From an uncultured Alphaproteobacteria bacterium (GTDB lineage Bacteria > Pseudomonadota > Alphaproteobacteria > Rs-D84 > CACZYB01): DNA of 32,000 nt. The stretch spans positions 28,141 to 60,140 of the forward strand of contig CAKQHZ010000004.1 of the NCBI GenBank assembly GCA_934246625.1. The letters run 5' to 3'. Below the pieces are notes generated by a model. That model worked only from the letters and a program-made list of their open reading frames with translations, was not told where the DNA came from and did no database searches. Shown here in pieces: positions 976 through 30,250 of this stretch (position 1 is its first letter; each line of letters opens with the position of its first letter). A program made the translations under genes and the position numbers.

Positions 976-1066
976 GCAGATGTGGCGGAACAGGTAGACG
1001 CAAGGGACTTAAAATCCCTCGGGTATTTAAACACCCGTGCTGGTTCGATTCCAGTCATCTGCACCA
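976..1066 (+). tRNA. tRNA-Leu (anticodon TAA), long variable arm, CCA encoded
   Basis: Manual cloverleaf. Acceptor GCAGATG/CATCTGC; anticodon stem AGGGA/TCCCT with loop CTTAAAA; variable-arm stem CGGGT/ACCCG; T arm GCTGG-TTCGATT-CCAGT; 3' ACCA. Confidence 0.88.
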
Positions 1067-1089
1067 TTTTTTTATGTAGGGGACAATCA

Positions 1090-9656: not shown

Positions 9657-9668
9657 ATTAGTTTTCCT

Positions 9669-10886: not shown

Positions 10887-10900
10887 TTTTGTCTCCTTTG

Positions 10901-13666: not shown

Positions 13667-13909
13667 TTTTAACACTCCTATATATAGGTTAAACAATATT
13701 TGTTGTCAAAATTAAACCTTTTTTGCATAAATGTCAAGAATATAATGAATTTTGTCAAATTGAAATTATTGCATAGGAAAAACAAGAAGTTATATTGATT
13801 TTTTAATTGCTTTTTATATGTGATAAGTTTGTGTCTTTCAGATTTCTGTTGAAATTTTTCTTTAAATGGTATATTTTTAAAGCACTTTAATATTTATAGG
13901 AGTAAAATT

Positions 13910-15173: not shown

Positions 15174-15884
15174 ATGACAGTATATGTATTTGATATGGAT
15201 GGAACTTTGACTCCTCCAAGAAAACCTATGACAGAAGAATTTAGCAAGAAATTTTTGCCATGGTTGAATGAAAATAAGGCTTTTATTGCGACAGGTTCAA
15301 ATCTTGAAAAGGTGATAGAGCAGGTAAGTCCAGAAATTATGAATGCCTTTACTGGAATATATTGTTCAATGGGTAATGAATTATGGAAAAAGGGTAAATA
15401 TGTTTATCAAAATGATTTTGTTCCAGATGAAAAGTTGATTGAAAAATTGGAAGAGTATCGTAAGAATACGACTTATCCATATCAACTTTATCCAAATTAT
15501 ATTGAACGTCGTGTTGGTATGATTAACTTTAGCGTGCTTGGTCGTGATTGCCCTTATGAAGAACGTTTGCGTTATCAAGCATGGGATAAGGAAAATTGTG
15601 AACGTGAAAAACTTAGCCAAGAATTAAAAACTATGTTCCCACAATATGAATTTTGTGTTGGTGGGTCTATATCAATGGATATTATCCCTAATGGTTGTAG
15701 CAAAGCTCAAGTTGCACAAAAACTTCGTGATGACTATCCTGATGAAGAAATTATTTTCTTTGGTGATAAAACAATGGTTGGTGGAAACGATTATGAATTG
15801 GCGTTTGCGTTGTCTGAGCTTGACAATACTTTAGTTGTGCAAGTTGATAGTCCAGATGATGTCCTTAAATTTTTAAAGATATAA
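15174..15884 (+). CDS. Phosphomannomutase, eukaryotic PMM/Sec53 type (HAD-IIB)
   Basis: 'FDMDGTLTPPRKPMT', 'ERRVGMINFSVLGRDCPYEERL', 'GGSISMDIIP', and 'IIFFGDKTMVGGNDYE' align closely with the human PMM2 / yeast Sec53 signature blocks I recall. The start directly abuts the MBL hydrolase stop. Confidence 0.85.
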   Translation: MTVYVFDMDGTLTPPRKPMTEEFSKKFLPWLNENKAFIATGSNLEKVIEQVSPEIMNAFTGIYCSMGNELWKKGKYVYQNDFVPDEKLIEKLEEYRKNTTYPYQLYPNYIERRVGMINFSVLGRDCPYEERLRYQAWDKENCEREKLSQELKTMFPQYEFCVGGSISMDIIPNGCSKAQVAQKLRDDYPDEEIIFFGDKTMVGGNDYELAFALSELDNTLVVQVDSPDDVLKFLKI

Positions 15885-15891
15885 TAAATAA

Positions 15892-15917
15892 AAAAAGAGG
15901 TTTTGAAGCCTCTTTTT
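15892..15917. terminator. Bidirectional rho-independent terminator; left boundary of the PKS-like cluster
   Basis: AAAAAGAGG-loop-CCTCTTTTT hairpin with an A-run 5' and a T-run 3', between convergent genes (PMM and the lipoprotein). Confidence 0.65.
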
Positions 15918-15923
15918 TTGTGA

Positions 15924-16343
15924 TTATTTTTTGATTACAGTTCCACGAAGTGCAACACCACTCATAATATGACCTTCCATACATTGGAATTCTGTATTGC
16001 TCCAATATGGATTTTTTTTGTAGTAGCTGTGGATATTTACAACTGCGTTTCCACCTTCTTTTACTGCTCGTGCTTGTAATGATATTAAAGCTGATGTAAA
16101 GGCACGACCGCAAGAGTTAGGAATAGATTTTCCAACATTGTTTGTTTTTTTGTTTGATGTCCATGTGCCAATAGTTTTTCCCTTTACTGATTTTTTACCA
16201 AATGAAAGTTCGATGTTTGGGTTTAGCTTTTCTTTTGCAAGTTTTGAATTTAGTTGTTCTTTGATTGGTAAATTTACCATACCAGCAGAAGAACAAGCAG
16301 AAAGTAATATTGTTAATCCAATTATATTTAGTGTTTTTTTCAT
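15924..16343 (-). CDS. Lipoprotein of unknown function, last gene of the KS-DH-KR-KS operon
   Basis: Lipobox 'LLSAC' after MKKTLNIIGLTI. Only a 1-nt gap from the upstream KS stop. The conserved-looking C-terminal half is (AVKEGGNAVVNI...QCMEGHIMSGVALRGTVI). Confidence 0.7.
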   Translation of the reverse strand: MKKTLNIIGLTILLSACSSAGMVNLPIKEQLNSKLAKEKLNPNIELSFGKKSVKGKTIGTWTSNKKTNNVGKSIPNSCGRAFTSALISLQARAVKEGGNAVVNIHSYYKKNPYWSNTEFQCMEGHIMSGVALRGTVIKK

Positions 16344-16344
16344 A

Positions 16345-17577
16345 TTAGTTTCCTTTCATTTTTTTTAATATAATAGATGTATTGATACCACCAAATGCAA
16401 AGTTGTTTGTTATTATGTATTCTGTATCAATAGTTCTTGCTTCACCCATAATATAATCAAGTTTTCCACATTCGTCATCTGGGGTGTCAAGATTAAGTGT
16501 TGGGGTGAACCAATTGTTATTCATCATTTCGGTTGCCCAAATTGTTTCTAAGGCACCGCAGGCTCCTAATGTATGACCTGTATAGCTTTTTAATGAACTT
16601 ATCGGTGTTTTGTTTCCAAATATTGCCTCTGTTGCAATGGTTTCAGCAATGTCGCCTTGTTTAGTGGCTGTTCCGTGTGCATTGATATAGCCAATTTGAC
16701 TTTCTTTAAGTTCAGCAGAATCCAAAGCCAATCCCATACATTTTGCCATAGTAATGCTGTTTGGGTGGGTGATGTGTGTGCCATCGGTGTTTGTTCCAAA
16801 GCCGACTATTTCCGCAATGATTTTTGCACCACGAGCTTTTGCGTGTTCGTATTCTTCCAAAATCAAAGTGCCAGCACCTTCACCAATGACTAAACCATCA
16901 CGGTTTTTATCAAATGGAGATGGAGTTTTATTTGGGGTGTTATTCTTTATACTTGTTGCAAAAAGTGTATCAAATACAGCAATTTGTGTAGGGCTAAATT
17001 CTTCGGCTCCACCAGCAATCATAACATCTTGGCTTCCACTTTTGATTGCTTCGTATGCATAACCTATGGCAAGGCTTCCCGATGTGCAAGCAGTTCCAGT
17101 TGGTATAAATCTTCCTGTTGTTTTAAAGTAAAGGGAAAGGTTGACTCCTGCTGTGTGTGGCATAATTTTTATATATGTAGATGAATTAAATGAACCAATT
17201 TCATTATTTTTTAACATACCAAAGAAATCGTTGATTGGTTCAATGGAACCGAATGAAGAACCATAAGCAACTCCAGTTCTTCCATTTGTAATGCAATCAT
17301 TGTTTTCAAGACCGGCTTGCTTTATGGCTTGTTCGGCTGAATATAATGCCAAAATTGATACTGGGCCCATAGAGCGAAGAACCTTTCTTGTATAATGTGC
17401 TGGCATTTCGAATTTCATTGCTGGGGACGCAAGGTGTGCATTAAGTCCCTTGTATTTTTCAAGTTCAGGTAAAGTTTGAACTGCATTTTCGAATTTGTGT
17501 AATCTTTCCCATGTTGAAGAAAGACTGCAACCAAGAGGGCTTACTACTCCCATACCAGTGATAACAACTCGTCGCAT
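16345..17577 (-). CDS. Beta-ketoacyl-ACP synthase (FabF/KAS II-like; ApeR-like position)
   Basis: Active-site Cys 'TGTACTSGS', His 'NAHGTAT', His 'YTGHTLGACG', C-terminal 'NNFAFGGINTS'. Confidence 0.9.
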   Translation of the reverse strand: MRRVVITGMGVVSPLGCSLSSTWERLHKFENAVQTLPELEKYKGLNAHLASPAMKFEMPAHYTRKVLRSMGPVSILALYSAEQAIKQAGLENNDCITNGRTGVAYGSSFGSIEPINDFFGMLKNNEIGSFNSSTYIKIMPHTAGVNLSLYFKTTGRFIPTGTACTSGSLAIGYAYEAIKSGSQDVMIAGGAEEFSPTQIAVFDTLFATSIKNNTPNKTPSPFDKNRDGLVIGEGAGTLILEEYEHAKARGAKIIAEIVGFGTNTDGTHITHPNSITMAKCMGLALDSAELKESQIGYINAHGTATKQGDIAETIATEAIFGNKTPISSLKSYTGHTLGACGALETIWATEMMNNNWFTPTLNLDTPDDECGKLDYIMGEARTIDTEYIITNNFAFGGINTSIILKKMKGN

Positions 17578-18302
17578 TAGAACATACCTCCATTTACTGA
17601 AATTACTTGTCGTGTGATATAGCCTGCATCTTCGGATAAAAGGTAAGATACAAGGCTTGCAACTTCACGTGGGGAACCGACACGTCTTGCTGGGATAATC
17701 TTTTTAACTTCATCGATTGGTAAATCCTTTGTCATATCGGTTTCGATTATTCCAGGGGCGATACAATTTGCAGTGATTTTGTGTTTTGCAAGTTCAATAG
17801 CAAGTGCCTTTGTCGCACCAATGATGCCTGCTTTTGCAGCAGAATAGTTGACTTGACCACGATTTCCAATTATTCCAGAAACCGAGGACATTGTTATAAT
17901 TCTTCCGTGCATACGGTTTTGAATCATTGGCATAATAATAGGCTTTAATACATTATAAAATCCGTCAAGATTTGTGTGAATAACGGAATCCCATTCTTCG
18001 TTTTCAAGTATTGGAAATGGATTATCCCTATTTATTCCTGCATTGCAAACAACACCATAGTAAATACCATTTTCTTCTATATCCTTTGTTATTATTTCAG
18101 ATGTTGTTTGGCGATTGGATATATCAAAACAAAGAAGGGTTGCATTTGCACCAAGTTTTTTAACTTCGCTTAATGTTTGTTCGGCACATTCTTTATTTTT
18201 ATTATAATGTAAGACTAAATCATATCCAAGTGGAGCAAGGTAAAGAGCAATAGCTTTTCCTATACCACGACTTGCACCAGTGATTAAAACGCGTTTATTC
18301 AT
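17577..18302 (-). CDS. fabG: 3-oxoacyl-ACP reductase (SDR; ApeQ-like)
   Basis: 'TGASRGIGKAIA' cofactor motif, 'NAGI', catalytic 'YSAAKAG'. TAATG overlaps with both neighbours. Confidence 0.9.
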   Translation of the reverse strand: MNKRVLITGASRGIGKAIALYLAPLGYDLVLHYNKNKECAEQTLSEVKKLGANATLLCFDISNRQTTSEIITKDIEENGIYYGVVCNAGINRDNPFPILENEEWDSVIHTNLDGFYNVLKPIIMPMIQNRMHGRIITMSSVSGIIGNRGQVNYSAAKAGIIGATKALAIELAKHKITANCIAPGIIETDMTKDLPIDEVKKIIPARRVGSPREVASLVSYLLSEDAGYITRQVISVNGGMF

Positions 18303-18763
18303 TATAGCTCCTTTAAAAAATCATCAACATTTTCTGGTCGATAGGTGTTTATGATTGCATTTGCAACGATTTTATTTTCCTTGTTATACATAGAACATTC
18401 AAAAGATGCAAGATTTTCTTCCATAAAAAGTTCTTGGACCTTTATAAAATAGCTTTCATCAACATTTAATACAGGAGTGAATATTTCCATTTTCTTTGTC
18501 CCAAGAAGAAAACCAACGGCAGGTTTTTTATTTGGATTTATTTCCAAATCGTAATAACCAGCAAAGCAACCAATGGTTTGTGCCATATATTCCAATGCAG
18601 AATAGGTTGGAACTCCATTTATGTGTGGTTGATATAGTATGTCAGTTTTTTTTATGTCTGCACGAGCGGTAAGATTGCCACCTTTTAAATCGACATTTTC
18701 GATTTCTGATATTATTATCATAGGGTGGTCGTGTGGTAAAAGTTCTTCTGGTGTTTTATACAT
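18302..18763 (-). CDS. Hotdog-fold 3-hydroxyacyl-ACP dehydratase (ApeP-like)
   Basis: 153 aa, with N-terminal 'LLPHDHPMIIISEI' resembling the FabZ/FabA 'LPHRxP' entry motif. Sandwiched between a KS and the KR. Confidence 0.75.
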   Translation of the reverse strand: MYKTPEELLPHDHPMIIISEIENVDLKGGNLTARADIKKTDILYQPHINGVPTYSALEYMAQTIGCFAGYYDLEINPNKKPAVGFLLGTKKMEIFTPVLNVDESYFIKVQELFMEENLASFECSMYNKENKIVANAIINTYRPENVDDFLKEL

Positions 18764-18764
18764 T

Positions 18765-19904
18765 TTACAATCCTAAAATCAAAGAAGCATTACTTCCACC
18801 AAAGGCAAATGAATTGCTTAGTATGATAGATAAGTGTTTTGCTTCGTTTCCGTTTGCTAAGTTTAATTTTGGTAAAGTGTCGTCATAGTTCCCATCGTAT
18901 ATGTGTGGAATTATGACTTGATTTTTTAACATTAAATATGAAAGTCCAGCTTCGATTGCACCAGATGCACCAAGTGCATGTCCAGTTAATGGTTTTGTTG
19001 ATGCACATAATACAGAATTTGTGAAAACACGAGATATGGCAAGACTTTCCATAGAATCATTTGCAATGGTTCCTGTGCCGTGCATATTTATGTAATCGAT
19101 TTTATCAGAAGTTAGATTTGCATCTTTTAGTGCAAGTGTCATTGCAAGTTCGGCACCATTGCCGTTTGGTTCTGGGTGTGTAAGGTGGTATGCGTCAGAG
19201 CTTTCTCCTATACCAAGAAGTTTTACACCATTAGCTTTTTCAGATTTTTGCATAATGAATAAAGCACAACCTTCACCAAGATTTATACCAGAGCGATTTT
19301 TTGACATTGGGTTTGTTTGTTCGGTGCTTATTGATTCAAGTGCAAAAAAGCCATTTTGTGTAAATGCACAATGGGAATCAACTCCACCAACAATAACAAT
19401 ATCACAAATGTCGTTTTTTATTAAATCACGGGCAGAGCGAAAAACTTTTGCACTGGAAGAGCAAGCGGTTGAAATTGTATAGGCAGGTCCCTTTGTCCCA
19501 GTTATTTTTTGAAGATAGACCGCTGGGCTTCCAAGTTCGATTTCATCAAATGAAAAATCCGCTGGGCAGTTATTTGTTTTTATCCATTGTTCGATATGTT
19601 TTTGTGCTTCGTGTATGCCTGTATTACTTGAACCTAAAACAATACCAATACGGGATAGTGCATAAGATTTTTTAAGGTTTTCTATATCGTCCTTTATTTG
19701 TGAAAATGCCATATCAAGTAATGTATAACAACGCATAGGTTTTGTATCATTTGTTTTTACAAAGCCAAATGGAATATTTCGATTTGGAATATCATCTTTG
19801 GTTTTTATTATTCCAGAATTTTTTGAAATTGCATTTTGTATAATTTCTTCTTTGGAATTACCTAAAGCACACACAAATCCTAAATTAGATAGTATTATAT
19901 TCAT
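18765..19904 (-). CDS. Beta-ketoacyl synthase (type II PKS KS; ApeO-like)
   Basis: Active-site Cys 'ISTACSSSAKV', 'NMHGTGT', 'LTGHALGASG', 'NSFAFGGSNAS'. First gene of the minus-strand operon. Confidence 0.9.
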   Translation of the reverse strand: MNIILSNLGFVCALGNSKEEIIQNAISKNSGIIKTKDDIPNRNIPFGFVKTNDTKPMRCYTLLDMAFSQIKDDIENLKKSYALSRIGIVLGSSNTGIHEAQKHIEQWIKTNNCPADFSFDEIELGSPAVYLQKITGTKGPAYTISTACSSSAKVFRSARDLIKNDICDIVIVGGVDSHCAFTQNGFFALESISTEQTNPMSKNRSGINLGEGCALFIMQKSEKANGVKLLGIGESSDAYHLTHPEPNGNGAELAMTLALKDANLTSDKIDYINMHGTGTIANDSMESLAISRVFTNSVLCASTKPLTGHALGASGAIEAGLSYLMLKNQVIIPHIYDGNYDDTLPKLNLANGNEAKHLSIILSNSFAFGGSNASLILGL

Positions 19905-19977
19905 AAATATTAACTTGCAATTTTGTTTTGTTTATAATATTTTTGTATTATATTATAATAAAAAGTAAAAAATCAAG
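19905..19977. promoter_or_regulatory. Divergent promoter region of the two cluster operons, with a 9-bp inverted repeat
   Basis: A 73-bp AT-rich gap. IR TTATAATAT (19932-19940) / ATATTATAA (19950-19958). Candidate minus-strand promoter TTGATT (19976-19971), 18 nt, TATAAT (19952-19947). No clear SD for either first gene. Confidence 0.35.
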
Positions 19978-20610
19978 ATGAATAAACATTTTTATATCAA
20001 CAAATTTGCAGTTTGGGAATCTTCTGATGATGTGGAACTTCCTGATGTTTGTTTTGTTCCTTCTATGTTAAGAAGACGTTTGACAGCGGTTGAAAAGATT
20101 GGAATATATCTTGCAAATCAGGTTTGTGAAAATAGAAATGATTATTTTGTTGTGTTTGCTTCTCGATTTGGTGAGTGGGGACAAACAATAAAACTTATTA
20201 AACAATTTTATGAAGATAGGGAGCTTTCTCCATCGGGGTTTAGCTCTTCTGTGCATAATGCTATGCCTGGGTTATTGTCAGTTTTGACACATAATATAAA
20301 TTCATATACTACGGTTGCAAGTAAGGAAAATACTATTGATAATGGGCTTTTGGAGGCGATGATTTCAAATTCTCCTGTGCTTTTTATTTATGCCGAGGAG
20401 GCAACACCAGAGTTTTATAAGTCTAAGTTTGATAAAAGTTTTCGTTCTCATGGTGTGGCGATTTTATTTTCCAATGAAAAGATTGGGTGTGAAATTGAGG
20501 TTGTATCAAAGTATAATGAAAATAAATCTGTTTCATTTGGTGAATTGGTTAAGTTTTTAAATGATGGTGAAAATTTGTCTTGTAATCATTTTGATATAAG
20601 GAAGATATAA
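19978..20610 (+). CDS. KS-like chain-length-factor protein lacking the active-site Cys (ApeC-like)
   Basis: 210 aa. 'FASRFGEWGQT...LSPSGFSSSVHNAMPGLLSV' matches the short CLF family found next to APE-type KS genes. No Cys-His-His triad. Confidence 0.75.
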   Translation: MNKHFYINKFAVWESSDDVELPDVCFVPSMLRRRLTAVEKIGIYLANQVCENRNDYFVVFASRFGEWGQTIKLIKQFYEDRELSPSGFSSSVHNAMPGLLSVLTHNINSYTTVASKENTIDNGLLEAMISNSPVLFIYAEEATPEFYKSKFDKSFRSHGVAILFSNEKIGCEIEVVSKYNENKSVSFGELVKFLNDGENLSCNHFDIRKI

Positions 20611-21344
20611 TGCGATTTGTTCGCTCTGTTTTAAGTGGAATTTGTTTTTTTATTTTTGGGTTGGGGGGATTTATTATTGGTTCCGCTGTTTTCCCCATAA
20701 TTGTTTTATTTTCTTCTAAAAAACGAAGATTTATACTTGCAAAAGTTATAATGGTTTCATGGAAAATTTTTGTGAAACTTATGATTGGTTTCCGACTTAT
20801 AAAGGTTGATGTCAAAAATATAGAGCGTTTGAAAAGTTGTAAGGGAAAAGTTGTTATTGCGAATCATCCTTCGTTGATTGATGTTGTGCTTCTTGTTTCT
20901 ATAATTCCGAATGCAATTTGTGTTGTAAAAAGTAGTCTTTTGCATAATATTTGGGTCAGTGGTATTATAAAAATGGTTTATATTGCCAACAATAAAGATG
21001 TGTCATCATTTATTAGCGAGGCTGGAAATCTTTTACATCAAGGGTTTAATATTGTTATTTTCCCAGAGGGGACAAGAACGAAACCTGATGATGTTGAACA
21101 TCATTTATATAGGGGATTTGCTCAACTTGCTTTGTATGCAAAGGTTCCTATTTTACCAATAGTTATAAAAAATAATCCTTCTATTTTAGGAAAGGGGCAA
21201 GGTTGGTATAATGTTGGGGACAGAGTTTCAGTTTATACTATAACTGTATGTGATGATATAAATATTCCGTTGCAAAAGGTTGAAAATTTCCATAAAACTT
21301 CAAAAGAAATTGTTTCAATTGTCAAATCAATATTCTTTTCTTAA
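20610..21344 (+). CDS. PlsC-type lysophospholipid/glycerolipid acyltransferase (ApeD-like)
   Basis: N-terminal TM segment, HX4D motif 'ANHPSLIDV', 'IFPEGTRT', 'PILPIVI'. Confidence 0.85.
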   Translation: MRFVRSVLSGICFFIFGLGGFIIGSAVFPIIVLFSSKKRRFILAKVIMVSWKIFVKLMIGFRLIKVDVKNIERLKSCKGKVVIANHPSLIDVVLLVSIIPNAICVVKSSLLHNIWVSGIIKMVYIANNKDVSSFISEAGNLLHQGFNIVIFPEGTRTKPDDVEHHLYRGFAQLALYAKVPILPIVIKNNPSILGKGQGWYNVGDRVSVYTITVCDDINIPLQKVENFHKTSKEIVSIVKSIFFS

Positions 21345-21370
21345 AATATTTGAATTTTTTCATAAAATAT

Positions 21371-21399
21371 TTGACTTTAATAGGTTTTTATACTAAATT
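21371..21399 (+). promoter_or_regulatory. Candidate internal sigma70-like promoter ahead of the tandem ACP genes
   Basis: TTGACT (21371-21376), a 17-nt spacer, then TAAATT (21394-21399). It sits in the only sizeable (85-bp) gap of the plus-strand operon. Confidence 0.4.
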
Positions 21400-21429
21400 T
21401 TCAATAACTTAATTGAAAGGTTTTAATTT

Positions 21430-21696
21430 ATGATGGAAAAAAATACTCTTATACAAGAAATAAAACAACTTATCATTGATTCTTTGGATTTGGAAGATAT
21501 GACTGTTGAAGATATTGATACAAATGCACCTTTGTTTGTTGATGGTCTTGGTCTTGACTCTATTGATGCATTGGAATTGGGTATGGCATTGAAAAAAAAG
21601 TATGGAATTGAGTTTAAATCAAACAAGGAACAAAATAAGGAATATTTCCGTTCTGTTGAAACCTTGGCTGATTTTATTATTAAAAATAAGCAATAA
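21430..21696 (+). CDS. Acyl carrier protein 1 (ApeE-like)
   Basis: 88 aa, phosphopantetheine attachment motif 'GLGLDSIDALEL'. The start may be the second ATG at 21433. Confidence 0.88.
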   Translation: MMEKNTLIQEIKQLIIDSLDLEDMTVEDIDTNAPLFVDGLGLDSIDALELGMALKKKYGIEFKSNKEQNKEYFRSVETLADFIIKNKQ

Positions 21697-21710
21697 AGTT
21701 TGGAGTAATT

Positions 21711-21968
21711 ATGCGTACACAAGAAGAAATTTTAAAAGTTGTTAAAGATATTTTGGTTCAAGATTTTGAATGTGATGCTGGTATGTTATCACCAGAAGTT
21801 CGCTTGGTTGAAGATTTGGATTTGGACAGTATTGATGCAGTTGATTTGATTGTTCGTTTGCAAAAAATTATCAATAAAAAAGTTAACCCAGAAGATTTTA
21901 AGCAAATAAGGACTTTGCAAGATATAGTTGTTGCTATTGAAAAAATTGTTAATGAACGTGCTGAATAA
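21711..21968 (+). CDS. Acyl carrier protein 2 (ApeF-like)
   Basis: 85 aa, 'DLDLDSIDAVDL' attachment motif. Clearly diverged from ACP 1. Confidence 0.88.
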   Translation: MRTQEEILKVVKDILVQDFECDAGMLSPEVRLVEDLDLDSIDAVDLIVRLQKIINKKVNPEDFKQIRTLQDIVVAIEKIVNERAE

Positions 21969-22488
21969 TATAATAAAAATAGTAGGTGTGATTTTTTCAC
22001 TTAGTTATCCTTTTATTGTTTTTGTTGCTTTGCAAAAGCATATTTCTTTACGGTTTATGGCATTATTTTTAGTGGTTGTTATTGTTGCAAATTTTTTTAA
22101 AACAGGAAAAAAAAGTTTTTTATTTTGTGGGTTGTTGTTGGCAACAAGTCTTTATATTTCAAATAATAATTTATTTTTGAAAGTTTATCCTGTGATGATG
22201 AATTTGCTTGTGTGTATGGGGTTTTTATTATCACTTAAAACTGAACCTTTGATTACAACATTTGCAAAACGTATGAAGAAAAATTTGTCAGAATGCGAGC
22301 TTTTATATACAAAAAAGTTGACAGTTATATGGGGTGTGTTTATGGCAATGAATACACTTGTTTCCTTTATAACTGTTTTTTTATCTGATGATATTTGGGT
22401 TATGTATAATGGCTTTGTTTCATATATACTTATGTTTATTTTATTTGTTGGTGAATTTTTTGTAAGAAGGAGGCTTTTCAAATGTTAA
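21952..22488 (+). CDS. Small polytopic membrane protein (ApeG/COG4648-like position)
   Basis: About 5 predicted TM helices in a conserved position between the ACPs and the adenylating enzyme. The start is uncertain: ATG at 21928 or 21952 overlaps ACP2; GTG at 21988 is an alternative. Confidence 0.6.
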   Translation: MNVLNNIIKIVGVIFSLSYPFIVFVALQKHISLRFMALFLVVVIVANFFKTGKKSFLFCGLLLATSLYISNNNLFLKVYPVMMNLLVCMGFLLSLKTEPLITTFAKRMKKNLSECELLYTKKLTVIWGVFMAMNTLVSFITVFLSDDIWVMYNGFVSYILMFILFVGEFFVRRRLFKC

Positions 22489-24197
22489 AAGATGCGAGTT
22501 TAGTATTATGTCAATTAGTATCACTTGATTATCCTGTATTTTTAAAAAATGATAAGGCTATTTCATTTAAAAAATTTCAAAACAATGTTGCAAAGTATGC
22601 GGGATTTTTTAAAACATTAGATACAGATTCAATTATTCTTTATATTTCTGATGATTTATATTTGTTTTATGTTTGCTTTATGGCAATTTTGCATGCAGGG
22701 AAAAATGTTATTTTACCAGCATATTTGACATCGGATAATATAGAAGATTTAAGTAATATTTCAAAGTATGTTATGACTACAAGTGAGCTTGGAAACACAT
22801 TTTTTAATGTGATGAATCCAAATAAAGTTCCACTTGGGGAAGCAGAGCATTTACACCCGATTGATGCAGAAAATCAAAGTGTGTTTTTCTTTACTTCTGG
22901 AAGCACAAGTAAGCCAAAAACTATTGAAAAAAAGTTTAAAACTTTGGTGTTGGAAGTTAATCTTCTTAGTCAAATACAAAGTGAAGTTTGGGATAAACGC
23001 CCTGTGATTATTTCATCAGCTATGCCAAATCATATTTATGGTATGTTATGGCGTTTTTTATTGCCTTTGTGTAAAGGATTATTACAGGATTTGGATTTGA
23101 TTTTGTTTCCTGAGGAAATTAGCACAAAGCAAAAAATATGTTCAAAAGTTGCATTTATTACGACGCCGTCTTTTATGAATCAACTTGCAAATTATGTAAA
23201 TCAATATACATTTTCAAATAATTGTATTGCAATTTATTCTTCTGGAAGTTTGCTTTCTGATACAACTTCAGATGCGATGTTTAAAACTTTTGGTGTTTCT
23301 CCGTTTGAAATTTTTGCAAGCACTGAAAGTGGTGCTGTGGCATATCGTCAGCAAAAAAATGGCCCATCATGGACTTTTGTTCCAGATATAAAATGGGAAA
23401 TTGATGAAAATGCGTCTCTTAAAATTTATTCTGAAAGAGCGTATGTGAAGCCTTTTATTATGTCTGATTCAATAAGTTTGCAAAGTGATAATAAGTTTAT
23501 TTTAAATGGTCGTGTTGACAGAATGGTAAAAATTGCGGAAAAGCGAGTTTCTCTTCCTGAAATGGAAAGTCGTATTGTCGCATATCCGTATATAGAGCAG
23601 GCTTATGTCCTTAGTTTAGAAGATAATAGCCGTTTGATTTTAGGGGCTGTTGTTGTTTTGAATGATGAGGGTAAAGAGTATTTGAAACAAAATGGAAAAT
23701 TGAATTTTGTAAGTGGACTTAGAAAATATCTTTTACAATATTTTGAGGCGGTTGTGATTCCTAGAAAAATAAGAATTGTGCAACAAATTCCAACTAATGC
23801 TCAGGGAAAACTTTTAAGTCGAAATATCGCAAAGTTGTTTGAGGTAAAAACTTCGGAACCAGTGATGCAAAATGTTGTTTCTTTGAAGGAACATTTTAGT
23901 GCAGATTTGACTTTTCTTCCTGATGCTGAATATTTCAAGGGACATTTCCCAAATTTTCCAATTTTGCCTGGGGTTATACAAATGCACTTTGTGTTTTATT
24001 TTATGAAGCAATATTTTCATGATAATCCTTCTAGGTATATTGTAAGCAGGTTAAAATTTATGAATTTGATTTTCCCGAATCAAAAAGTTGCTTTTGTTTT
24101 GGATAAAATTTCACCAGATGAATATACTTTTTCATATAAAGTTGATGAAAAAATTTGTTCATGTGGAAAAATTTCAATAGAGGTGAGAAATGTTTAA
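22482..24197 (+). CDS. Adenylate-forming enzyme (acyl/aryl-ACP ligase, ApeH-like) fused to a C-terminal hotdog dehydratase (ApeI-like)
   Basis: AMP-binding core 'FFFTSGSTSKPK' (nt 22893...), 'GRVDRMVKIAEKRVSLPEME', 'IPTNAQGKLLSR'. From about aa 455 onwards (nt ~23844-24194) it carries 'FKGHFPNFPILPGVIQMH', the FabZ/FabA-type catalytic His motif. Confidence 0.85.
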   Translation: MLKDASLVLCQLVSLDYPVFLKNDKAISFKKFQNNVAKYAGFFKTLDTDSIILYISDDLYLFYVCFMAILHAGKNVILPAYLTSDNIEDLSNISKYVMTTSELGNTFFNVMNPNKVPLGEAEHLHPIDAENQSVFFFTSGSTSKPKTIEKKFKTLVLEVNLLSQIQSEVWDKRPVIISSAMPNHIYGMLWRFLLPLCKGLLQDLDLILFPEEISTKQKICSKVAFITTPSFMNQLANYVNQYTFSNNCIAIYSSGSLLSDTTSDAMFKTFGVSPFEIFASTESGAVAYRQQKNGPSWTFVPDIKWEIDENASLKIYSERAYVKPFIMSDSISLQSDNKFILNGRVDRMVKIAEKRVSLPEMESRIVAYPYIEQAYVLSLEDNSRLILGAVVVLNDEGKEYLKQNGKLNFVSGLRKYLLQYFEAVVIPRKIRIVQQIPTNAQGKLLSRNIAKLFEVKTSEPVMQNVVSLKEHFSADLTFLPDAEYFKGHFPNFPILPGVIQMHFVFYFMKQYFHDNPSRYIVSRLKFMNLIFPNQKVAFVLDKISPDEYTFSYKVDEKICSCGKISIEVRNV

Positions 24198-24915
24198 ACC
24201 TGTTATTGTAATTCCTTTTTACAACCATCTTAATGGATTTAATAAAATTGCAAAGCAAATTTTTATGCAATCTATTCCTGTGATAGTTGTTGATGATGGA
24301 AGTGATAAAGTTGAAAAAAATGGTGTGAAAAAAATTTGTGATAAATATAACTTTATCTTTCTTGAAAGCAAAATCAATGGCGGAAAGGGTGTTGCTGTGA
24401 AAAAGGCATTTCGTTATGCGATAAAGCATAATTTTACTCATGCTTTGCAAGTTGATGCAGATGGTCAACATAATATTTCTGATATTAAGGAGTTTTTTTT
24501 GTTGGCGAAAAAGTTTCCGAATGCAATAATAAATGGTTGCCCTTTGTATGATGAATCTGTGCCAAAGGCAAGATTTTATGGACGAAAAATTACAAATTTT
24601 TGGGTTGAAATTGAAACTGGGTTTGCAAAAATTCCAGACAGTATGTGTGGTTTTCGTGTCTATCCATTGGCAAATATAAAAAAGGTTTTGCCTTTGCTTT
24701 CATGTGAACGAATGGGATTTGATACTGAAATTTTGGTGAAGTCTTATTTGCTTGGTGCTCCTTTGTATCATAAAATGACAAGGGTTTCTTATCCTTTAGA
24801 TGGAGTTTCTCATTTCCATACATTTAGGGATAATTGTCAAATAAGTTTTATGCACGTTAAATTATGTGTGTTTGCTTTGGTTAATCTTTTTAATTTTAGG
24901 AGAATTAAATGGTAA
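24190..24915 (+). CDS. Family 2 glycosyltransferase (ApeJ-like)
   Basis: 'VIVIPFYNH', 'VIVVDDGSDK', 'QVDADGQH'. ATGTTTAA overlap with the upstream gene. Confidence 0.85.
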   Translation: MFKPVIVIPFYNHLNGFNKIAKQIFMQSIPVIVVDDGSDKVEKNGVKKICDKYNFIFLESKINGGKGVAVKKAFRYAIKHNFTHALQVDADGQHNISDIKEFFLLAKKFPNAIINGCPLYDESVPKARFYGRKITNFWVEIETGFAKIPDSMCGFRVYPLANIKKVLPLLSCERMGFDTEILVKSYLLGAPLYHKMTRVSYPLDGVSHFHTFRDNCQISFMHVKLCVFALVNLFNFRRIKW

Positions 24916-25307
24916 AGGAAATTGAAATTACGATACCTTTTTATGATGTCGATTCAATGCGTGTTGCATATCATGGAAACTATGTTAAATATCTTGAAGA
25001 AGCAAGGTGTGCTTACTTGCTTGATAAAGAAATGACTTATGGTGATATGGATATTTTGGGATATGCGTTTCCAGTTGTCGAATTAAAGGTGAAGTATATT
25101 CGTTCTTGTGTTTTTGGGCAAAGGGTAAAGGTTTCAGCAGAGCTTGTGCCTTGTGATAATTGTTTGATTTTTAAATATGTGATTGTTGATGCCAAAACAG
25201 GTGTAAAATTATGTAAGGCGGAAACAAAACAAATGTGTGTTGATATGAAAACTGGTGAAAGTTTGTTTTTGCTTCCTGATATAGTATTGGAAAAGTTAAA
25301 GGATTAA
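24909..25307 (+). CDS. 4HBT/YbgC-type hotdog thioesterase (ApeK-like)
   Basis: 132 aa, 'IPFYDVDSMRVAYHGNYVKYLEEAR' with the catalytic Asp context typical of 4-hydroxybenzoyl-CoA thioesterase-fold enzymes. Confidence 0.8.
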   Translation: MVKEIEITIPFYDVDSMRVAYHGNYVKYLEEARCAYLLDKEMTYGDMDILGYAFPVVELKVKYIRSCVFGQRVKVSAELVPCDNCLIFKYVIVDAKTGVKLCKAETKQMCVDMKTGESLFLLPDIVLEKLKD

Positions 25308-25308
25308 A

Positions 25309-25887
25309 ATGAAGTTTTTTGTTTATCTTTTATGTTTTATATTTTCATTTCCTGTGTTCGCAGGAGATATTGTTAAAAATGGTGCATTTGATAAGTTTGC
25401 AAGTCAAGTGTCAGTTGAAAATGTAAAGTTCACACAGACAAAGACTATTCCAAATATAAAACGAAATTTTGTTTCAAATGGTTTTATCAAGTTTGTAAAA
25501 AATGTTGGTTTTGTGTGGGTGCAAAATCTTCCAAATTCAATAAAATTTATTGGAACACAAAAGCAATATTGTGTTAATGATGAGGTAAAGGATTTGTCTG
25601 ATTTACCTTATTTTTCACAAATACAAATGGTTGTTGATGATTTGTTGCTTGGTAATTATAAATCTTTGAATTCTGCTTTTAATGTTGATTATAGTGATGA
25701 TGGGGAAAATTGGAATTTATTTTTGACTCCTAAAAATTCACGAATATCTTCTTTTATCAAGGTTGTGCAAGTTTCTGGTGATGTGTCTTTGTTAAAAGAA
25801 ATTGTTATTGATTATTCTAATGGTATGGAAATAACTATTGATTTCGAAGTATTTAAAGAGGAAATTAGTGATGAAATTCAATGTTAG
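25309..25887 (+). CDS. LolA-like periplasmic lipid/lipoprotein carrier (ApeL-like)
   Basis: Signal peptide MKFFVYLLCFIFSFPVFA|GD, about 190 aa and beta-rich. The conserved position directly upstream of the MMPL exporter is the main argument. Confidence 0.6.
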   Translation: MKFFVYLLCFIFSFPVFAGDIVKNGAFDKFASQVSVENVKFTQTKTIPNIKRNFVSNGFIKFVKNVGFVWVQNLPNSIKFIGTQKQYCVNDEVKDLSDLPYFSQIQMVVDDLLLGNYKSLNSAFNVDYSDDGENWNLFLTPKNSRISSFIKVVQVSGDVSLLKEIVIDYSNGMEITIDFEVFKEEISDEIQC

Positions 25888-28012
25888 GAAAATAGTTTTC
25901 TTTTTATTGTTATTTTTGATTGGTGGATATAGTTTTTATTGTCGTTTTCCATTGAAAATCGAATCTTCTTTGACTGATTTGCTCCCTATGTCTTCGGGTA
26001 AAGATATTCCGCCAATGTTGTTTGAAAAGTATTCCTCATCTGTGAATATTATTGTTAAAGGTAAGAGTTTTAAAGATGTGAAGGGTGTAAGTGATAACCT
26101 TTATAATTCTCTTTTAAAAAATGGTTTTAATAATGTTAATTATAAGGTGGCAAATGTTTCAATGGATAAAATTGTGGAATTCCTTGTTGCTCACCATAAT
26201 TCTTTTTTAACCAAAGAAGATGCAGAATTGCTTCAAAATAAAAATTATGACAGGGTTGTGAAAAACAGTGAACAAAAGTTATTTAATTCTTGGTTTCCGT
26301 TGCTTGTCCCAATTACAAAAGACCCATTTTTATTGTTAAGTAATTATGTGCAGGGGATTTCAAAACCTAATTTAAAATGGGGTGAAAAAGATGGGGTTAT
26401 TTGGCAACGTGAAGGTGGCTTTGATTATACTTTTTTGAATGTTAATCTTCCAATTAAAAATGTTGATGAATTGATTGTAAAGGTTAATTTGCTTAATAAA
26501 ATTGTTGATGAAGTTTCTTTTGATATGCCTGTGGAAATTAGTATGTCTGGGGCTCCGCTTCATACGGTTAGGACATATTCAAAGTGTAATAATCAGATTT
26601 TGTTTCTTTCAATTTTATCATTTGTTGTTGTGTTGATGTTGACATATAGTCTTTTTCATAATGTGAAAATAGAATTTAGTATTGGGTTTAATTTGATGGT
26701 TGCATTTATGTCTGGGTGTATTGCTTTGCTTTTGTTTTTTGATAAATTGCATTTTTTGACTTTTGCATTTGGAACATCGCTTATTGGAATTTGTATTGAT
26801 TATTCGTATCATTATTTCTTTAGTCTTATTGAAAAAGATTATAAACGTGTTATGAAAAATATTTTTTATTCGTTTGCAACTACAGTTTTGTCTTTTACTC
26901 CATTATTATTTTCATCTTTGCCATTGTTAAAACAGATTGCAGTATTCACTATTGGTGGATTGATTGGAACCTATGTTTTGTTGTTGGTAAGTGGTGATAA
27001 GACTTTGAATCTTCGCAATGTAAAATTATTATCAGTGAAAAGTTTTTCAAATTGGGTGCGTATTACTTTGTTTTGTTTTTGTCTTGTGATTATTACAGTT
27101 GGTTTTTGTTTTGTGAAATTTGATAATTCTCCAAAATATCTTTATAAACCATCAGCTCAACTTTTAAAGGCAGAGATGAATTTTGTGAAACTTAATGGAC
27201 CTTCGTTTTCAAATTTTTTGATTATAAAGGGACGTGATTTACAGAGTGTTTTGGAAACAGAGGAAAGAATAAAACAAAATTATAAATTCTTTAGCTTGTC
27301 TGAAATTTTACCATCTTTGAAAATGCAAAAACAAAGGCAGGGTTTGATTGCGGATTTATTTAAAAATCGTGCGGATATGATAAAGGAGATTTTGGAACTT
27401 GATGAAAAGCCGATGTTTGAAAAAACAGATTTGATAACTATTTCTTCCTTTAAAAAGTTGTTTGGAGAAGCTCTTTTTAATCAATTTATTTTTTCTGATA
27501 ATGGTATGGTGTTAAGTGTTATTCCATTGACTGAAAAAATCAATGTTAGTGAAGAAAATGTTTTTGTTGTAAATCCACAAGCTCAGATAACAGAACAATT
27601 AAATCACTATACAAGTGAAGGCTATTTTTATTTAGGGGTAAGTTTTATTTCTTTGTTTATTTTTCTTTTACTTGTGTATAAAAGAAAAGCATTGATGTAT
27701 ATTTTGCCGTCCTTTATGGGGGTAAGTTTGACTGTGGCGGTATTGTCGATTTGTGGGTATGCAATTACATTTTTCCATTTATTAAGTTTATTTATTGTTG
27801 TTGGCTTAAGTATGGATTATACAATTTTTCATTTTGATAAGGATAACAAAGATAAACTTCGTCCTGTGTTGTATTCTTTTTTGACAAGTTTTATAAGTTT
27901 TGGGATTTTGTCCTTTGTGGATTTCTATCTTATCCAAGCGATGGGGTTGACTATATTTTTGGGGCTTGGATTTTCCTATGCTTTATCGCTTTTTGTTTTT
28001 AGGAAAGTTTAG
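25871..28012 (+). CDS. MMPL/RND-like membrane exporter (ApeM-like)
   Basis: About 713 aa with two blocks of 5-6 TM helices, each preceded by a large soluble loop. Start chosen at ATG 25871 (MKFNVRKIVFF...) after GAGGAA; the ORF-track start at 25838 is an alternative codon inside the LolA-like gene. Confidence 0.8.
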   Translation: MKFNVRKIVFFLLLFLIGGYSFYCRFPLKIESSLTDLLPMSSGKDIPPMLFEKYSSSVNIIVKGKSFKDVKGVSDNLYNSLLKNGFNNVNYKVANVSMDKIVEFLVAHHNSFLTKEDAELLQNKNYDRVVKNSEQKLFNSWFPLLVPITKDPFLLLSNYVQGISKPNLKWGEKDGVIWQREGGFDYTFLNVNLPIKNVDELIVKVNLLNKIVDEVSFDMPVEISMSGAPLHTVRTYSKCNNQILFLSILSFVVVLMLTYSLFHNVKIEFSIGFNLMVAFMSGCIALLLFFDKLHFLTFAFGTSLIGICIDYSYHYFFSLIEKDYKRVMKNIFYSFATTVLSFTPLLFSSLPLLKQIAVFTIGGLIGTYVLLLVSGDKTLNLRNVKLLSVKSFSNWVRITLFCFCLVIITVGFCFVKFDNSPKYLYKPSAQLLKAEMNFVKLNGPSFSNFLIIKGRDLQSVLETEERIKQNYKFFSLSEILPSLKMQKQRQGLIADLFKNRADMIKEILELDEKPMFEKTDLITISSFKKLFGEALFNQFIFSDNGMVLSVIPLTEKINVSEENVFVVNPQAQITEQLNHYTSEGYFYLGVSFISLFIFLLLVYKRKALMYILPSFMGVSLTVAVLSICGYAITFFHLLSLFIVVGLSMDYTIFHFDKDNKDKLRPVLYSFLTSFISFGILSFVDFYLIQAMGLTIFLGLGFSYALSLFVFRKV

Positions 28013-28586
28013 TTAAATCGAATTTTTTTATAAACAATGTTGGAATTGTAAGATAGCATTCAAGTTTTTCATTGATTGAGTTTGAATTTACAGATGATAT
28101 GCAAAGTATGTAATCTTCTAATTTATAAAATTCGTTGATTTTATTTTTGTTTTCATATTCTTTACCAAGTTTATATTCGGCTTCGAATTTTGTAAAATTT
28201 TTGTAAAAATCAATTTTGTCTGTTGGTGTGGGGAATTTTAAAAATTCTGAAATCCCTTTGAAATTGCGATTTACTGATGTGTTTTCAATATCTATACCAA
28301 TAGGATTTTTTGAAATCGCAAAAACAATGTATTGTCCGCTGTGAGAAAGGCTTATGTATGTATCTTTGTCATTTTTGGCAATGGGTTTTCCAGTTGGAAG
28401 AATTTCGATACCTTGTTTCAAATATTCTTTTATAAGCATTCTGCCGACAAGGAATTGTGTTTGTTTTAGTGGTTGAAGTATTCGGTTATAACGTTTTTGT
28501 TCTGGTAAAGATAAATTATCGAAATTTTTAGTTAAAAAATCTTGTATATTGATTATTTCTGATAAATCTGCTATAAAAACTTTCAT
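27999..28586 (-). CDS. Sfp-type 4'-phosphopantetheinyl transferase
   Basis: 'GKPIAKNDKDTYISLSHSGQYIVFAIS', 'PIGIDIE', 'FTKFEAEYK' (the W/FxxKEA motif). Start chosen at 28586 (MKVFIADL). The 3' end overlaps the convergent MMPL gene by 14 nt. Confidence 0.85.
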   Translation of the reverse strand: MKVFIADLSEIINIQDFLTKNFDNLSLPEQKRYNRILQPLKQTQFLVGRMLIKEYLKQGIEILPTGKPIAKNDKDTYISLSHSGQYIVFAISKNPIGIDIENTSVNRNFKGISEFLKFPTPTDKIDFYKNFTKFEAEYKLGKEYENKNKINEFYKLEDYILCISSVNSNSINEKLECYLTIPTLFIKKFDLTKLS

Positions 28587-28620
28587 ATTTATATGATACA
28601 ACAATAAAATTTCAAAGGCA

Positions 28621-29532
28621 ATGAAAATGAATAACTGGTATGAAATAAAGGAACAAAGTGCGGGCAAATACAGATTATTGTTTCTTTGGTATGTGTATAA
28701 AATTTTTAAACTTTCAGGGTTGAAATTTATGTTAAGGTTGATTTTGCCTTTTATTATTGTGTTTTCAAAATCGGCGAGGGTGAATTCGAAAAAATATCGT
28801 ATGATTTTGAATAATTTTCAAAAATCACATAATTTAAAGGTTGCAAAGTTTTCATCATATTCGCATATAAGTTCTTATGCTTTGTCTTTGGCTGAAAAAT
28901 TTAGTGTGTTATGTGATGATAAAACATCTTTGAAATTTGATGTAAATAAAAATGAAAATTGGGTGGAATTCCTTGATGTTTTAAATAAAAAAATTGGAGC
29001 ATTTTTGATTTGTTCCCATCTTGGAAATGTTGAAGTTTTATCGGCTTTGCCAGAAGTTAATAAAGATTATCCAAAAAGTTATCTTCATGCGTTTATGGAG
29101 ACGTCTCATAATAATGTGTTTCATAAATTTATTACTGAAAGAATGAAGGATAAGTCATTTGAGTTGCATTCTACAGAAACATTAAATTTTGATACAATTA
29201 TGAAATTGTATGAGGATTTGCAAGCAGGACAGTTGTTGATGATGGCAGGTGATAGAGTGTCTGCGGAAAATCCGAAAATGCTTGTGGAGTGTGAAATGTT
29301 GGATAGGAAAATAAAACTTCCAAAGGGTGTTTTTAAGTTTGCACAAACACTTCATCACCCAACATTTGCAGTTTTTTTAATGAGGGAGAAAAAGTCCTAC
29401 AAACTTTATCTTTATAAAATTGATAATAATTTGCCTGTGTCTGAAATGGCAAAACAATATGCCAGTGTTTTGGAAAAACTTTTGCTTTTGTATCCGAATC
29501 AGTGGTATAACTTTTACCCATATTTTGAATAA
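28621..29532 (+). CDS. LpxL/HtrB-like (lipid A biosynthesis-type) acyltransferase
   Basis: 303 aa, N-terminal TM segment, 'CSHLGNVE' resembling the LpxL 'HxxxxE' catalytic dyad, and 'MAGDR'. Terminal gene of the cluster. Confidence 0.7.
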   Translation: MKMNNWYEIKEQSAGKYRLLFLWYVYKIFKLSGLKFMLRLILPFIIVFSKSARVNSKKYRMILNNFQKSHNLKVAKFSSYSHISSYALSLAEKFSVLCDDKTSLKFDVNKNENWVEFLDVLNKKIGAFLICSHLGNVEVLSALPEVNKDYPKSYLHAFMETSHNNVFHKFITERMKDKSFELHSTETLNFDTIMKLYEDLQAGQLLMMAGDRVSAENPKMLVECEMLDRKIKLPKGVFKFAQTLHHPTFAVFLMREKKSYKLYLYKIDNNLPVSEMAKQYASVLEKLLLLYPNQWYNFYPYFE

Positions 29533-29576: not shown

Positions 29577-29596
29577 AAACCCGTAAAAACGGGTTT
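29577..29596. terminator. Hairpin terminator (best for minus-strand tRNA-Glu; also closes the cluster)
   Basis: AAACCCG-TAAAAA-CGGGTTT. On the minus strand it is followed by TTTTCTTTT; on the plus strand the T-tract is weaker. Confidence 0.6.
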
Positions 29597-29612: not shown

Positions 29613-29688
29613 TGGCGTCCCCAAGGAGATTCGAACTCCTGTTGAGAGATTGAAAGCCTCTAGTCCTAGGCCTCTAGACGATGGGGAC
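29613..29688 (-). tRNA. tRNA-Glu (anticodon TTC), CCA encoded
   Basis: Manual fold of the reverse complement. Acceptor GTCCCCA/TGGGGAC; D stem GTCT/GGAC; anticodon stem AGAGG/TCTCT with loop CTTTCAA; T arm AGGAG-TTCGAAT-CTCCT; GCCA end. Confidence 0.9.
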
Positions 29689-29764: not shown

Positions 29765-30250
29765 TTATCTTGTCATATCTCTTGCAGATTTGCTTAGGCT
29801 GTCGACCTGTTCGTGATACTTTAAACTTTCCTTTTTTACCCAGCAAATAAGCAAATCTTTTTCATTTAATGATTTTAAAAGAATATAAATTTCATCTAAA
29901 AGACTTTTCGGTTTATTAGGATTTTCAGTGTATTGTTTTATTTTTGAAATCGCATTAAGGCAGTCATTAAAGATTACAACCTTTGTGTCGTCCATTTTGT
30001 CCTTATTAAAATTAAGGTATATCAAAGTGTGTTTGATTGCCTGTAATTCCATTTCAACAGGAGAGTTTGCAGGGGCTGTGCCAGATTCTTTTGCATTCAT
30101 TTTGCCAAGTGAGATAAATCCGTATCCGCCTTTTTTATTACCAGAAGTAAAACTTCCATCGGCAAAAAATACGGTTGATGTTTTCATAAAGTTTTCACAT
30201 CTTTTTAAGGCTGTGGCTTTTGGGTAAAAATTCTTATCAATTACTATCAT
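29765..30250 (-). CDS. RNase H-like protein (RNase HI / RVT_3-type DEDD fold)
   Basis: Candidate catalytic residues in the expected order: 'FFADGS' (D), 'VEMELQAI' (E), 'IFNDCLNAI' (D), 'HEQVDSLSK' (D). 161 aa. Confidence 0.65.
   Translation of the reverse strand: MIVIDKNFYPKATALKRCENFMKTSTVFFADGSFTSGNKKGGYGFISLGKMNAKESGTAPANSPVEMELQAIKHTLIYLNFNKDKMDDTKVVIFNDCLNAISKIKQYTENPNKPKSLLDEIYILLKSLNEKDLLICWVKKESLKYHEQVDSLSKSARDMTR

Follow-up and report, generated by a model that had tools for sequence, protein, structure and literature searches.

A probable aryl polyene cluster with rearranged gene order in an uncultured gut alphaproteobacterium

Does a block of 17 tightly packed open reading frames (ORFs) in the DNA of an uncultured alphaproteobacterium encode the synthesis of an aryl polyene (APE) lipid, and do its departures from the described ape clusters set it apart from them? 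The block occupies positions 15924-29532 of a 32,000-nucleotide stretch of contig CAKQHZ010000004.1 (positions 28,141 to 60,140), the whole of which was analysed and is called the window here. An earlier reading of this DNA, made from its letters alone (the sequence-only reading), had described the block as a compact APE-type cluster in two divergent operons and as a streamlined variant of that family. We addressed these claims by comparing every window protein with ApeA-R of the Escherichia coli CFT073 ape cluster (apeA-R, c1186-c1204; 33728-48749 of our locus L004), which served as the reference, and by collecting 80 loci in a genome scan and annotating them by BLAST with the window and E. 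coli proteins. These comparisons suggest that the block is an intact APE cluster of the type found in E. coli, Xenorhabdus and Acinetobacter, carried on the chromosome of an uncultured gut alphaproteobacterium, and we put the probability of this assignment at about 0.85.

Assignment of the block to the aryl polyene family

Fifteen of the 17 genes were homologous to, and colinear with, those for E. coli CFT073 Ape proteins, with E-values down to 4e-174, in support of the family that had been proposed from sequence; so many colinear matches lie far beyond chance. The same likeness held for the Xenorhabdus doucetiae cluster, the catalytic motifs were the same as in these references and intact in all enzymes of the block, and the E. 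coli orders C-D-E-F-G-H-I-J-K-L-M and O-P-Q-R were both kept. The block encodes a ketosynthase (KS) with a half-size chain-length factor (CLF), ApeO and ApeC, the second KS ApeR, the ketoreductase ApeQ and two hotdog dehydratases without an enoyl reductase, the ligase ApeH with tandem acyl carrier proteins (ACPs), ApeD and ApeJ for lipid attachment, and the export set ApeG, ApeL and ApeM in the E. coli order (Table 1). As the sequence-only reading had stated, both ketosynthases carry Cys-His-His, the CLF lacks the active-site Cys at the KS position, and none of the 17 ORFs matched an enoyl reductase or malonyltransferase family. The DSxD serine is present in both ApeE and ApeF by alignment. 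Neither the window nor the reference cluster has an enoyl reductase, FabD or in-cluster synthesis of 4-hydroxybenzoate (4-HBA; PMC8253772).

Profile and structure matches agreed with this assignment. Among the APE-associated hidden Markov models (HMMs), which had been put forward as a check on the earlier claim, curated cut-offs were passed by ApeR (NF006587, PRK09116; 648 bits, cut-off 470), ApeO (NF006618, PRK09185; 428 bits, cut-off 407), ApeQ (TIGR01831, FabG2; 369.8 bits, cut-off 338.85) and the two ACPs (models PRK09184 and PRK05350), and the FabF and FlxB models failed. The best PDB matches of ApeR were the ApeR structures 4EWG (495 bits) and 7F27 (478 bits), compared with ~270 bits for FabF, and those of ApeO were 6QSP_A (248 bits) and 7F28_B (232 bits), compared with ~167 bits for FabF; matches of ApeC were confined to the ApeC chains 7F28_A and 6QSP_B. 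The likeness to Acinetobacter baumannii lies in the score of ApeR to 7F27 and in an ApeC structure as best PDB match. Window ApeR also keeps Tyr135, which is Val in FabF, and Phe202; a structural study in A. baumannii connected both residues with how the aryl group stacks (PMC8358021).

Grouping of the KS and CLF proteins with primary fatty-acid synthase (FAS) or another family, the outcome that the sequence-only reading had named as counting against it, was seen in neither the NCBIfam scores, the PDB matches nor a neighbour-joining (NJ) tree of ApeR. A second ordinary type II FAS, or an envelope-lipid locus making saturated acyl chains, would fit the FabF-, FabG- and FabZ-like folds, the ACPs and the PlsC- and LpxL-like acyltransferases, but we consider it barely credible for a cluster that lacks an enoyl reductase, FabD, FabH and FabI and that contains a half-size CLF, the ApeH ligase and the ApeI and ApeP dehydratases. 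Its ketosynthases miss the cut-off of the fabF equivalog model (373 bits, cut-off 494) and pass the APE-type models, and in the ApeR tree a long branch sets FabF apart from all ApeR sequences. Identity to the Ape protein versus the FAS protein was 58 versus 40% for ApeR and 38 versus 38% for ApeO (both against FabF), 58 versus 43% for ApeQ (FabG), and 57 versus 30% and 52 versus 33% for ApeE and ApeF (AcpP). In score, the KS, CLF, KR and ACP proteins of the window lay far closer to Ape proteins and solved Ape structures than to FabF, FabG or AcpP. A flexirubin- or xanthomonadin-type cluster would account for weak matches to FlxB (292 bits) and LolA2_flexi (36.6 bits), yet both scores lie under the cut-offs (340 and 125 bits), as does that for DarB (26 bits, cut-off 550), whereas the FabG2 model is passed. 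Moreover, no DarA/DarB, tyrosine ammonia-lyase or halogenase is present, the gene order from C to M is that of E. coli, and two ACPs are encoded here, whereas xanthomonadin clusters lack the second (PMC8253772); we therefore regard a cluster of that type as very improbable.

Other observations weigh against assigning the block to the APE family. No homologue of ApeA, ApeB or ApeN was found anywhere in the window. ApeN (DUF3261, LolB-like) has been described as conserved across APE clusters (PMC8253772), but an HMM built from 38 ApeN homologues matched no six-frame window ORF at E <= 10, and the gene is absent from the loci of the closest relatives too. For ApeB, the head-group methyltransferase, no window ORF matched the E. 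coli protein; its reaction is a tailoring step that is not universal. No 4-HBA-forming gene of the UbiC or Rv2949c-like kind was detected in the window or the 80 related loci by jackhmmer searches, whose sensitivity was limited by their small seeds (E. coli UbiC and an Rv2949c-like fragment from L090, a distant APE cluster on a long contig full of frameshifts). Nor does the E. coli cluster contain such a gene; it draws on a ubiC located outside the cluster (PMC8253772). In addition, ApeC, ApeL and ApeM are just 19-23% identical to the E. coli proteins, and the lipid anchor of an APE has been determined only in Xenorhabdus.

Predicted pathway and starter acid

The substrate, product and localisation of the pathway can be predicted from homology to characterised systems, and the roles proposed here were drawn from PMC8253772, PMC8358021, PMC12624758 and bioRxiv 10.1101/2020.12.19.423268. 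An AcpT-like phosphopantetheinyl transferase (PPTase) encoded in the block would turn ApeE and ApeF into their holo forms, and the ApeH domain would adenylate an aromatic acid, most likely 4-HBA, and then load it onto ApeE, the ACP that carries the starter in A. baumannii (PMC12624758). ApeR and the ApeO:ApeC KS:CLF pair would elongate this starter with malonyl-ACP, the malonyl groups coming from the housekeeping FabD. ApeQ would reduce each beta-keto group, and ApeP, paired with the ApeI domain that is fused to ApeH, would carry out dehydration; because no enoyl reductase is present, a conjugated polyene should form. ApeK may proofread or release. ApeD, the GT2 half of ApeJ and the separate acyltransferase half of ApeJ would then assemble an APE-sugar-phosphoglycerolipid, which ApeG, ApeM and ApeL would carry to the outer membrane. 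The corresponding Xenorhabdus lipid is APE-GalNAc-phosphate-glycerol, also with a C26:5 conjugated acyl chain, and an apeB mutant of Xenorhabdus has an unmethylated head group (bioRxiv 10.1101/2020.12.19.423268). As the window lacks ApeB, its head group is predicted to be unmethylated, and the product is likely a non-methylated aryl-polyene lipid.

We also considered whether APE-type machinery might here use a starter other than 4-HBA, either another gut aromatic acid (e.g. p-coumarate) or a non-aromatic acid, which would yield a different polyene lipid or just the conjugated fatty-acyl part of the lipid. This would suit the failure to find a 4-HBA synthase in the window or related loci, the gut-associated host lineage with its small genomes (PMC9769736), which may lack ubiquinone synthesis, and an ApeH domain that is just 29% identical to E. 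coli ApeH. A. baumannii ApeH has also been used to load p-coumarate (PMC12624758, methods), and the Xenorhabdus cluster produces the C26:5 chain in addition to its APE. However, the E. coli cluster manages with UbiC from elsewhere, the aryl-stacking Tyr135 and Phe202 are kept in ApeR, as are the starter-ACP sequence features in ApeE, and the distant cluster L090 has a chorismate pyruvate-lyase-like gene fragment. On balance a different starter seems unlikely to us, and we favour 4-HBA as the acid that the window ApeH would load.

The L090 fragment (7723-8432) lies between apeR and a homologue of the lipoprotein gene described below. It is Rv2949c-like, and we take this Pfam family to comprise 4-HBA-forming enzymes, so that the fragment would put a putative 4-HBA synthase inside an APE cluster.

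Rearrangements, accessory genes and relatives

Relative to the E. coli and Xenorhabdus clusters, the window has apeOPQR turned round to form a divergent operon, ApeH and ApeI fused, ApeJ split with its acyltransferase half relocated behind apeM, no ApeA, ApeB or ApeN, and two additional genes, for the AcpT-like PPTase and for a lipoprotein of YbjQ fold. In the fusion protein, 29% identity to E. coli ApeH extended over residues 60-454 and 26% identity to ApeI over residues 480-566; the ANL motifs of the ApeH domain, including the A10 lysine, were invariant across a 30-sequence alignment, and GHFP is kept in the ApeI domain. The final gene of the block had been called an LpxL-like acyltransferase, which it is, but it proved to be the detached C-terminal half of ApeJ: when joined to the GT2 protein, it was colinear with the whole of E. 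coli ApeJ, with DDGSD, DADGQH and HLG(N/D)VE kept. Pfam gave no significant match for this half, for ApeG or for the PPTase.

The PPTase had been recognised from sequence, but its strand had not: the gene lies on the minus strand, with 28586 as the most likely start (195 amino acids, aa). It has the two-domain PPTase fold with GxDxE and (F/W)xxxEAxxK motifs, and it matched E. coli AcpT (holo-ACP synthase 2) by hhalign (probability 97.8%, E 9e-13) and BLASTP (E 1e-7). The best matches of its AlphaFold2 model (mean confidence, pLDDT, 70) were Sfp (1QR0, 4MRT) and human AASDHPPT, at E 1e-7, and its Pfam and NCBIfam scores were under the curated cut-offs. The two proteins share their length of 195 aa and the Sfp-type motifs, but are only ~29% identical, over just 76 residues, and the window gene differs in being part of the cluster, convergent with apeM. 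In E. coli O157:H7 it is reportedly AcpT that activates the homologues of ApeE/F (De Lay & Cronan 2006, cited in PMC8253772), and no PPTase is encoded within the CFT073 ape cluster (PMC8253772). The arrangement M> <PPT >Jc, where Jc and Jn are the C- and N-terminal halves of ApeJ, is kept in six related loci (L006-8, L010, L013, L022), and PPTase homologues are neighbours of APE clusters in genera that include Thalassospira and Rheinheimera.

The lipoprotein gene is last in the minus operon. Its AlphaFold2 model (pLDDT 90.8) has the YbjQ/UPF0145/DUF74 fold, with 1vr4, 1y2i and 3qkb as top Foldseek matches (probability 1.0, E 2e-3), and two of its Cys are invariant. Homologues adjoin APE genes in 18 of the 80 loci, often straight after apeR. 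Of three distant homologues, the one in L090 does so too, but the other two (L091, L092) have unrelated neighbours, so that the idea of an APE-specific accessory protein is supported only in part. We rejected the possibility that it is a diverged ApeN (hhalign probability 0.8%) or a diverged ApeA (6.8%, over the signal peptide only). A role for it in handling the lipid at the outer membrane is no more than a guess. Profiles of the ApeA and ApeN families (E. coli genes at 48360-48749 and 37317-37901 of L004) matched each other with an hhalign probability of 81.5% over 95 columns, and the two may be distant paralogues.

The distinctness implied by the term "streamlined variant" held less well than the rearrangements themselves, which are real: the H-I fusion, split ApeJ, PPTase and inverted OPQR all recur elsewhere. 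Fused ApeH-I homologues numbered 282 in a large protein collection and came from many genera; the best 120 of these were nearly all ~565 aa, and the named ones were from metagenome-assembled genomes (MAGs) of Alphaproteobacteria. Acinetobacter loci share with the window an ApeH-dehydratase fusion and separate Jn and Jc genes (L015, L020, L033, L038 and others), and A. baumannii ApeH has been treated as an N-terminal ligase plus a dehydratase partner of ApeP ('ApeH-Nt', 'ApeH-ApeP DH'; PMC8358021). Unlike the window, they carry C to M, N where present, and then O-P on one strand (in the fetched flank), with ApeN detected at each locus and no adjacent PPTase seen within 10 kb. Other carriers of the H-I fusion include Thalassospira, Azospirillum and Gastranaerophilales, and Rheinheimera too encodes Jn and Jc separately. 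Two of these features have counterparts in the literature already, in the fused ApeH of Acinetobacter (PMC8358021) and the ApeE/F-activating AcpT of E. coli (PMC8253772). Within the well-known APE family the cluster is an ordinary member, whose deviations amount to rearrangements and accessory genes also met in other bacteria.

Rumen and gut Alphaproteobacteria MAGs, including Ca. Enterousia, have exactly the architecture of the window cluster (<R<Q<P<O >C...>M <PPT >Jc), and at least 8 related MAG loci keep it. Inverted OPQR is found in addition in gut Sphaerochaetaceae, Opitutales and Gastranaerophilales MAGs and in one Holophagaceae MAG. The gut and rumen clusters as a group share this inversion with the window, and their alphaproteobacterial members M> <PPT >Jc as well, but their ApeH-I proteins are just 40-49% identical to the window's and only two of them (L010, L012) have the lipoprotein. 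In Gastranaerophilales the GT2 half is missing, and ApeB is encoded in several, though not all, of the clusters. In the ApeR tree (NJ, no bootstraps, indicative only) the window formed one clade with gut and rumen Alphaproteobacteria, Opitutales, Sphaerochaetaceae, Gastranaerophilales and the Holophagaceae MAG (L005-L014, L036, L041, L056, L062-64, L074), separate from other Alphaproteobacteria (Azospirillum, Rhizobiales, Caulobacter, Acetobacteraceae; comparison loci L026, L035, L039, L040, L061, L079) and from Gammaproteobacteria, and apeOPQR lay on the opposite strand in every member of the gut clade. This pattern hints that APE clusters may have been exchanged across gut phyla; a search for flanking genes shared with the relatives, which would bear on vertical descent, found none.

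The alphaproteobacterial-like background that had been noted from sequence was borne out by the source names of homologues: NCBI gives the name '[Alphaproteobacteria bacterium]' to proteins that fall into one 90%-identity cluster with the window's elongation factor P (EF-P). More than 100 metagenome contigs (including L086-L089) encode proteins that match those of the window exactly or almost exactly, and one contig, from a Hadza human-gut assembly, has the cluster's right-hand end in nearly identical form. This recurrence argues that the cluster is neither an assembly artefact nor a decaying remnant, and that the organism is a recurrent gut alphaproteobacterium known only from MAGs.

A broader proposal, which we find possible but doubtful, is that the window represents a distinct APE lineage spread across phyla of gut-associated, probably anaerobic bacteria and making a non-methylated host-interface lipid. 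The traits of such a lineage would be inverted apeOPQR, often an AcpT-like PPTase of its own, no ApeN and sometimes the YbjQ-fold lipoprotein. If this were true, aryl polyenes would act in organisms where they have hardly been studied; according to a 2025 preprint, they had not previously been isolated from obligate anaerobes. APE clusters have been described as the family of biosynthetic gene clusters most widely spread among bacteria, and the yellow membrane lipids that they encode give protection from oxidative stress. The window cluster, intact in an uncultured gut alphaproteobacterium with a small genome that is seen repeatedly in human and ruminant gut metagenomes, would add a host-associated producer to this family and leaves the known working of APE clusters unchanged.

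Gene layout, boundaries and neighbouring genes

The 13.6-kb block consists of two divergent operons of tightly packed genes, with 5 minus-strand ORFs, 11 plus-strand ORFs and 1 further minus-strand ORF between the last two plus genes; in order of transcription, the minus operon reads ApeO (379 aa)-ApeP-ApeQ-ApeR (410 aa)-lipoprotein. Except for the strand of the PPTase, the ORF map and strands were as the sequence-only reading had drawn them, and its junctions were present: TAATG overlaps at 17577, 18302 and 20610, ATGTTAA at 22482, ATGTTTAA at 24190 and ATGGTAA at 24909. One-base gaps lie at 16344, 18764 and 25308. For ApeG (21952), ApeM (25871) and the PPTase (28586), shorter starts were favoured both by alignment with relatives and by gene calls made independently on metagenome contigs of identical sequence, and with these the 17-nucleotide overlaps that had been reported do occur. 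The terminators and tRNA that had been named as boundaries were also located (Table 1). The 73-bp spacer between the operons presumably contains the promoters of both. We do not claim an internal promoter in the apeD-apeE gap, where the consensus match was just 9/12 in an AT-rich genome. The G+C content is ~31% over the whole window, in which an Rfam scan detected two tRNAs and nothing else.

Table 1. Features of the block and its boundaries, in window coordinates
Feature	Position	Strand	Evidence
Terminator-like hairpin, bidirectional, left boundary	15888..15921	.	15 pairs on +, 11 on -; between phosphomannomutase gene (+) and lipoprotein gene (-)
Lipoprotein, 139 aa, YbjQ/UPF0145-like fold	15924..16343	-	Lipobox LSAC; last gene of minus operon
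ApeR, FabB/F-like homodimeric ketosynthase (410 aa)	16345..17577	-	58% identity to E. coli ApeR, E 4e-174
ApeQ, FabG2-type ketoreductase	17577..18302	-	58% identity to E. coli ApeQ versus 43% to FabG
ApeP, hotdog dehydratase (153 aa)	18302..18763	-	Pfam ApeP-like PF22817, E 1.9e-13; 29% to E. coli ApeP
ApeO, ketosynthase partner of CLF (379 aa)	18765..19904	-	38% identity to E. coli ApeO
AT-rich divergent intergenic region, 73 bp	19905..19977	.	Consensus matches only: promoter-like hexamers on each strand
ApeC, half-size Cys-less chain-length factor (210 aa)	19978..20610	+	PF13723 (Ketoacyl-synt_2), E 1.3e-35; 21% to E. coli ApeC
ApeD, PlsC-type lysophospholipid acyltransferase	20610..21344	+	PF01553; motifs HPSLID (HX4D), FPEGTRT; 34% to E. 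coli ApeD
ApeE, starter ACP (88 aa; GLGLDSID)	21430..21696	+	57% to E. coli ApeE; NF006617 97 bits, cut-off 70
ApeF, second ACP (85 aa)	21711..21968	+	52% to E. coli ApeF; NF003757 101 bits, cut-off 65
ApeG, small membrane protein (178 aa)	21952..22488	+	29% to E. coli ApeG, E 2e-16
ApeH-ApeI fusion (571 aa)	22482..24197	+	Aryl-acid:ACP ligase ~1-455, hotdog dehydratase ~470-571; PF00501 and ApeI-like PF22818
ApeJ N-terminal half, GT2 glycosyltransferase (DDGSD, DADGQH)	24190..24915	+	43% to E. coli ApeJ residues 5-230
ApeK, 4HBT/YbgC-type thioesterase	24909..25307	+	PF13279; 43% to E. coli ApeK; YDVD Asp kept
ApeL, LolA-like periplasmic carrier	25309..25887	+	23% to E. coli ApeL, E 2e-7; weak LolA and LolA2_flexi matches
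ApeM, MMPL/RND-type exporter (713 aa)	25871..28012	+	19% to E. coli ApeM over 721 columns, E 3e-18; weak MMPL and SecDF matches
AcpT-like Sfp-type phosphopantetheinyl transferase (195 aa)	27999..28586	-	Motifs SLSHSG, GIDIE, FxxFEAxYK
ApeJ C-terminal half, LpxL-like acyltransferase (HLGNVE)	28621..29532	+	22% to E. coli ApeJ residues 268-550, E 4e-17
Terminator-like hairpin, right boundary	29577..29596	.	Followed by tRNA-Glu 29613-29688 (-)

Immediately upstream of the left terminator, the gene for an MBL-fold hydrolase is joined without a gap to one for a eukaryotic-type phosphomannomutase (PF03332, E 2e-34; both genes 14562-15884, plus strand). Just past the tRNA-Glu at the right boundary lies the gene for a 161-aa RNase H-like protein (29765-30250, minus strand), which scored 16 bits against the RNase HI equivalog cut-off of 160. 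ORFs of 160 and 142 aa without a family match are located at 7128-7610 (plus strand) and 31508-31936 (minus strand). A mechanically called ORF of 373 aa (955-2076, plus strand), for which there was no Pfam match, starts upstream of tRNA-Leu(TAA) (976-1066) and overlaps it, so that the real gene, if any, must begin later. Further from the cluster, the minus strand encodes a four-gene efflux operon (7687-12277) with an OEP outer-membrane factor, a membrane-fusion protein, an ABC ATPase and a MacB/FtsX-type permease, and a 414-aa protein with Big-like and LysM domains (12452-13696).

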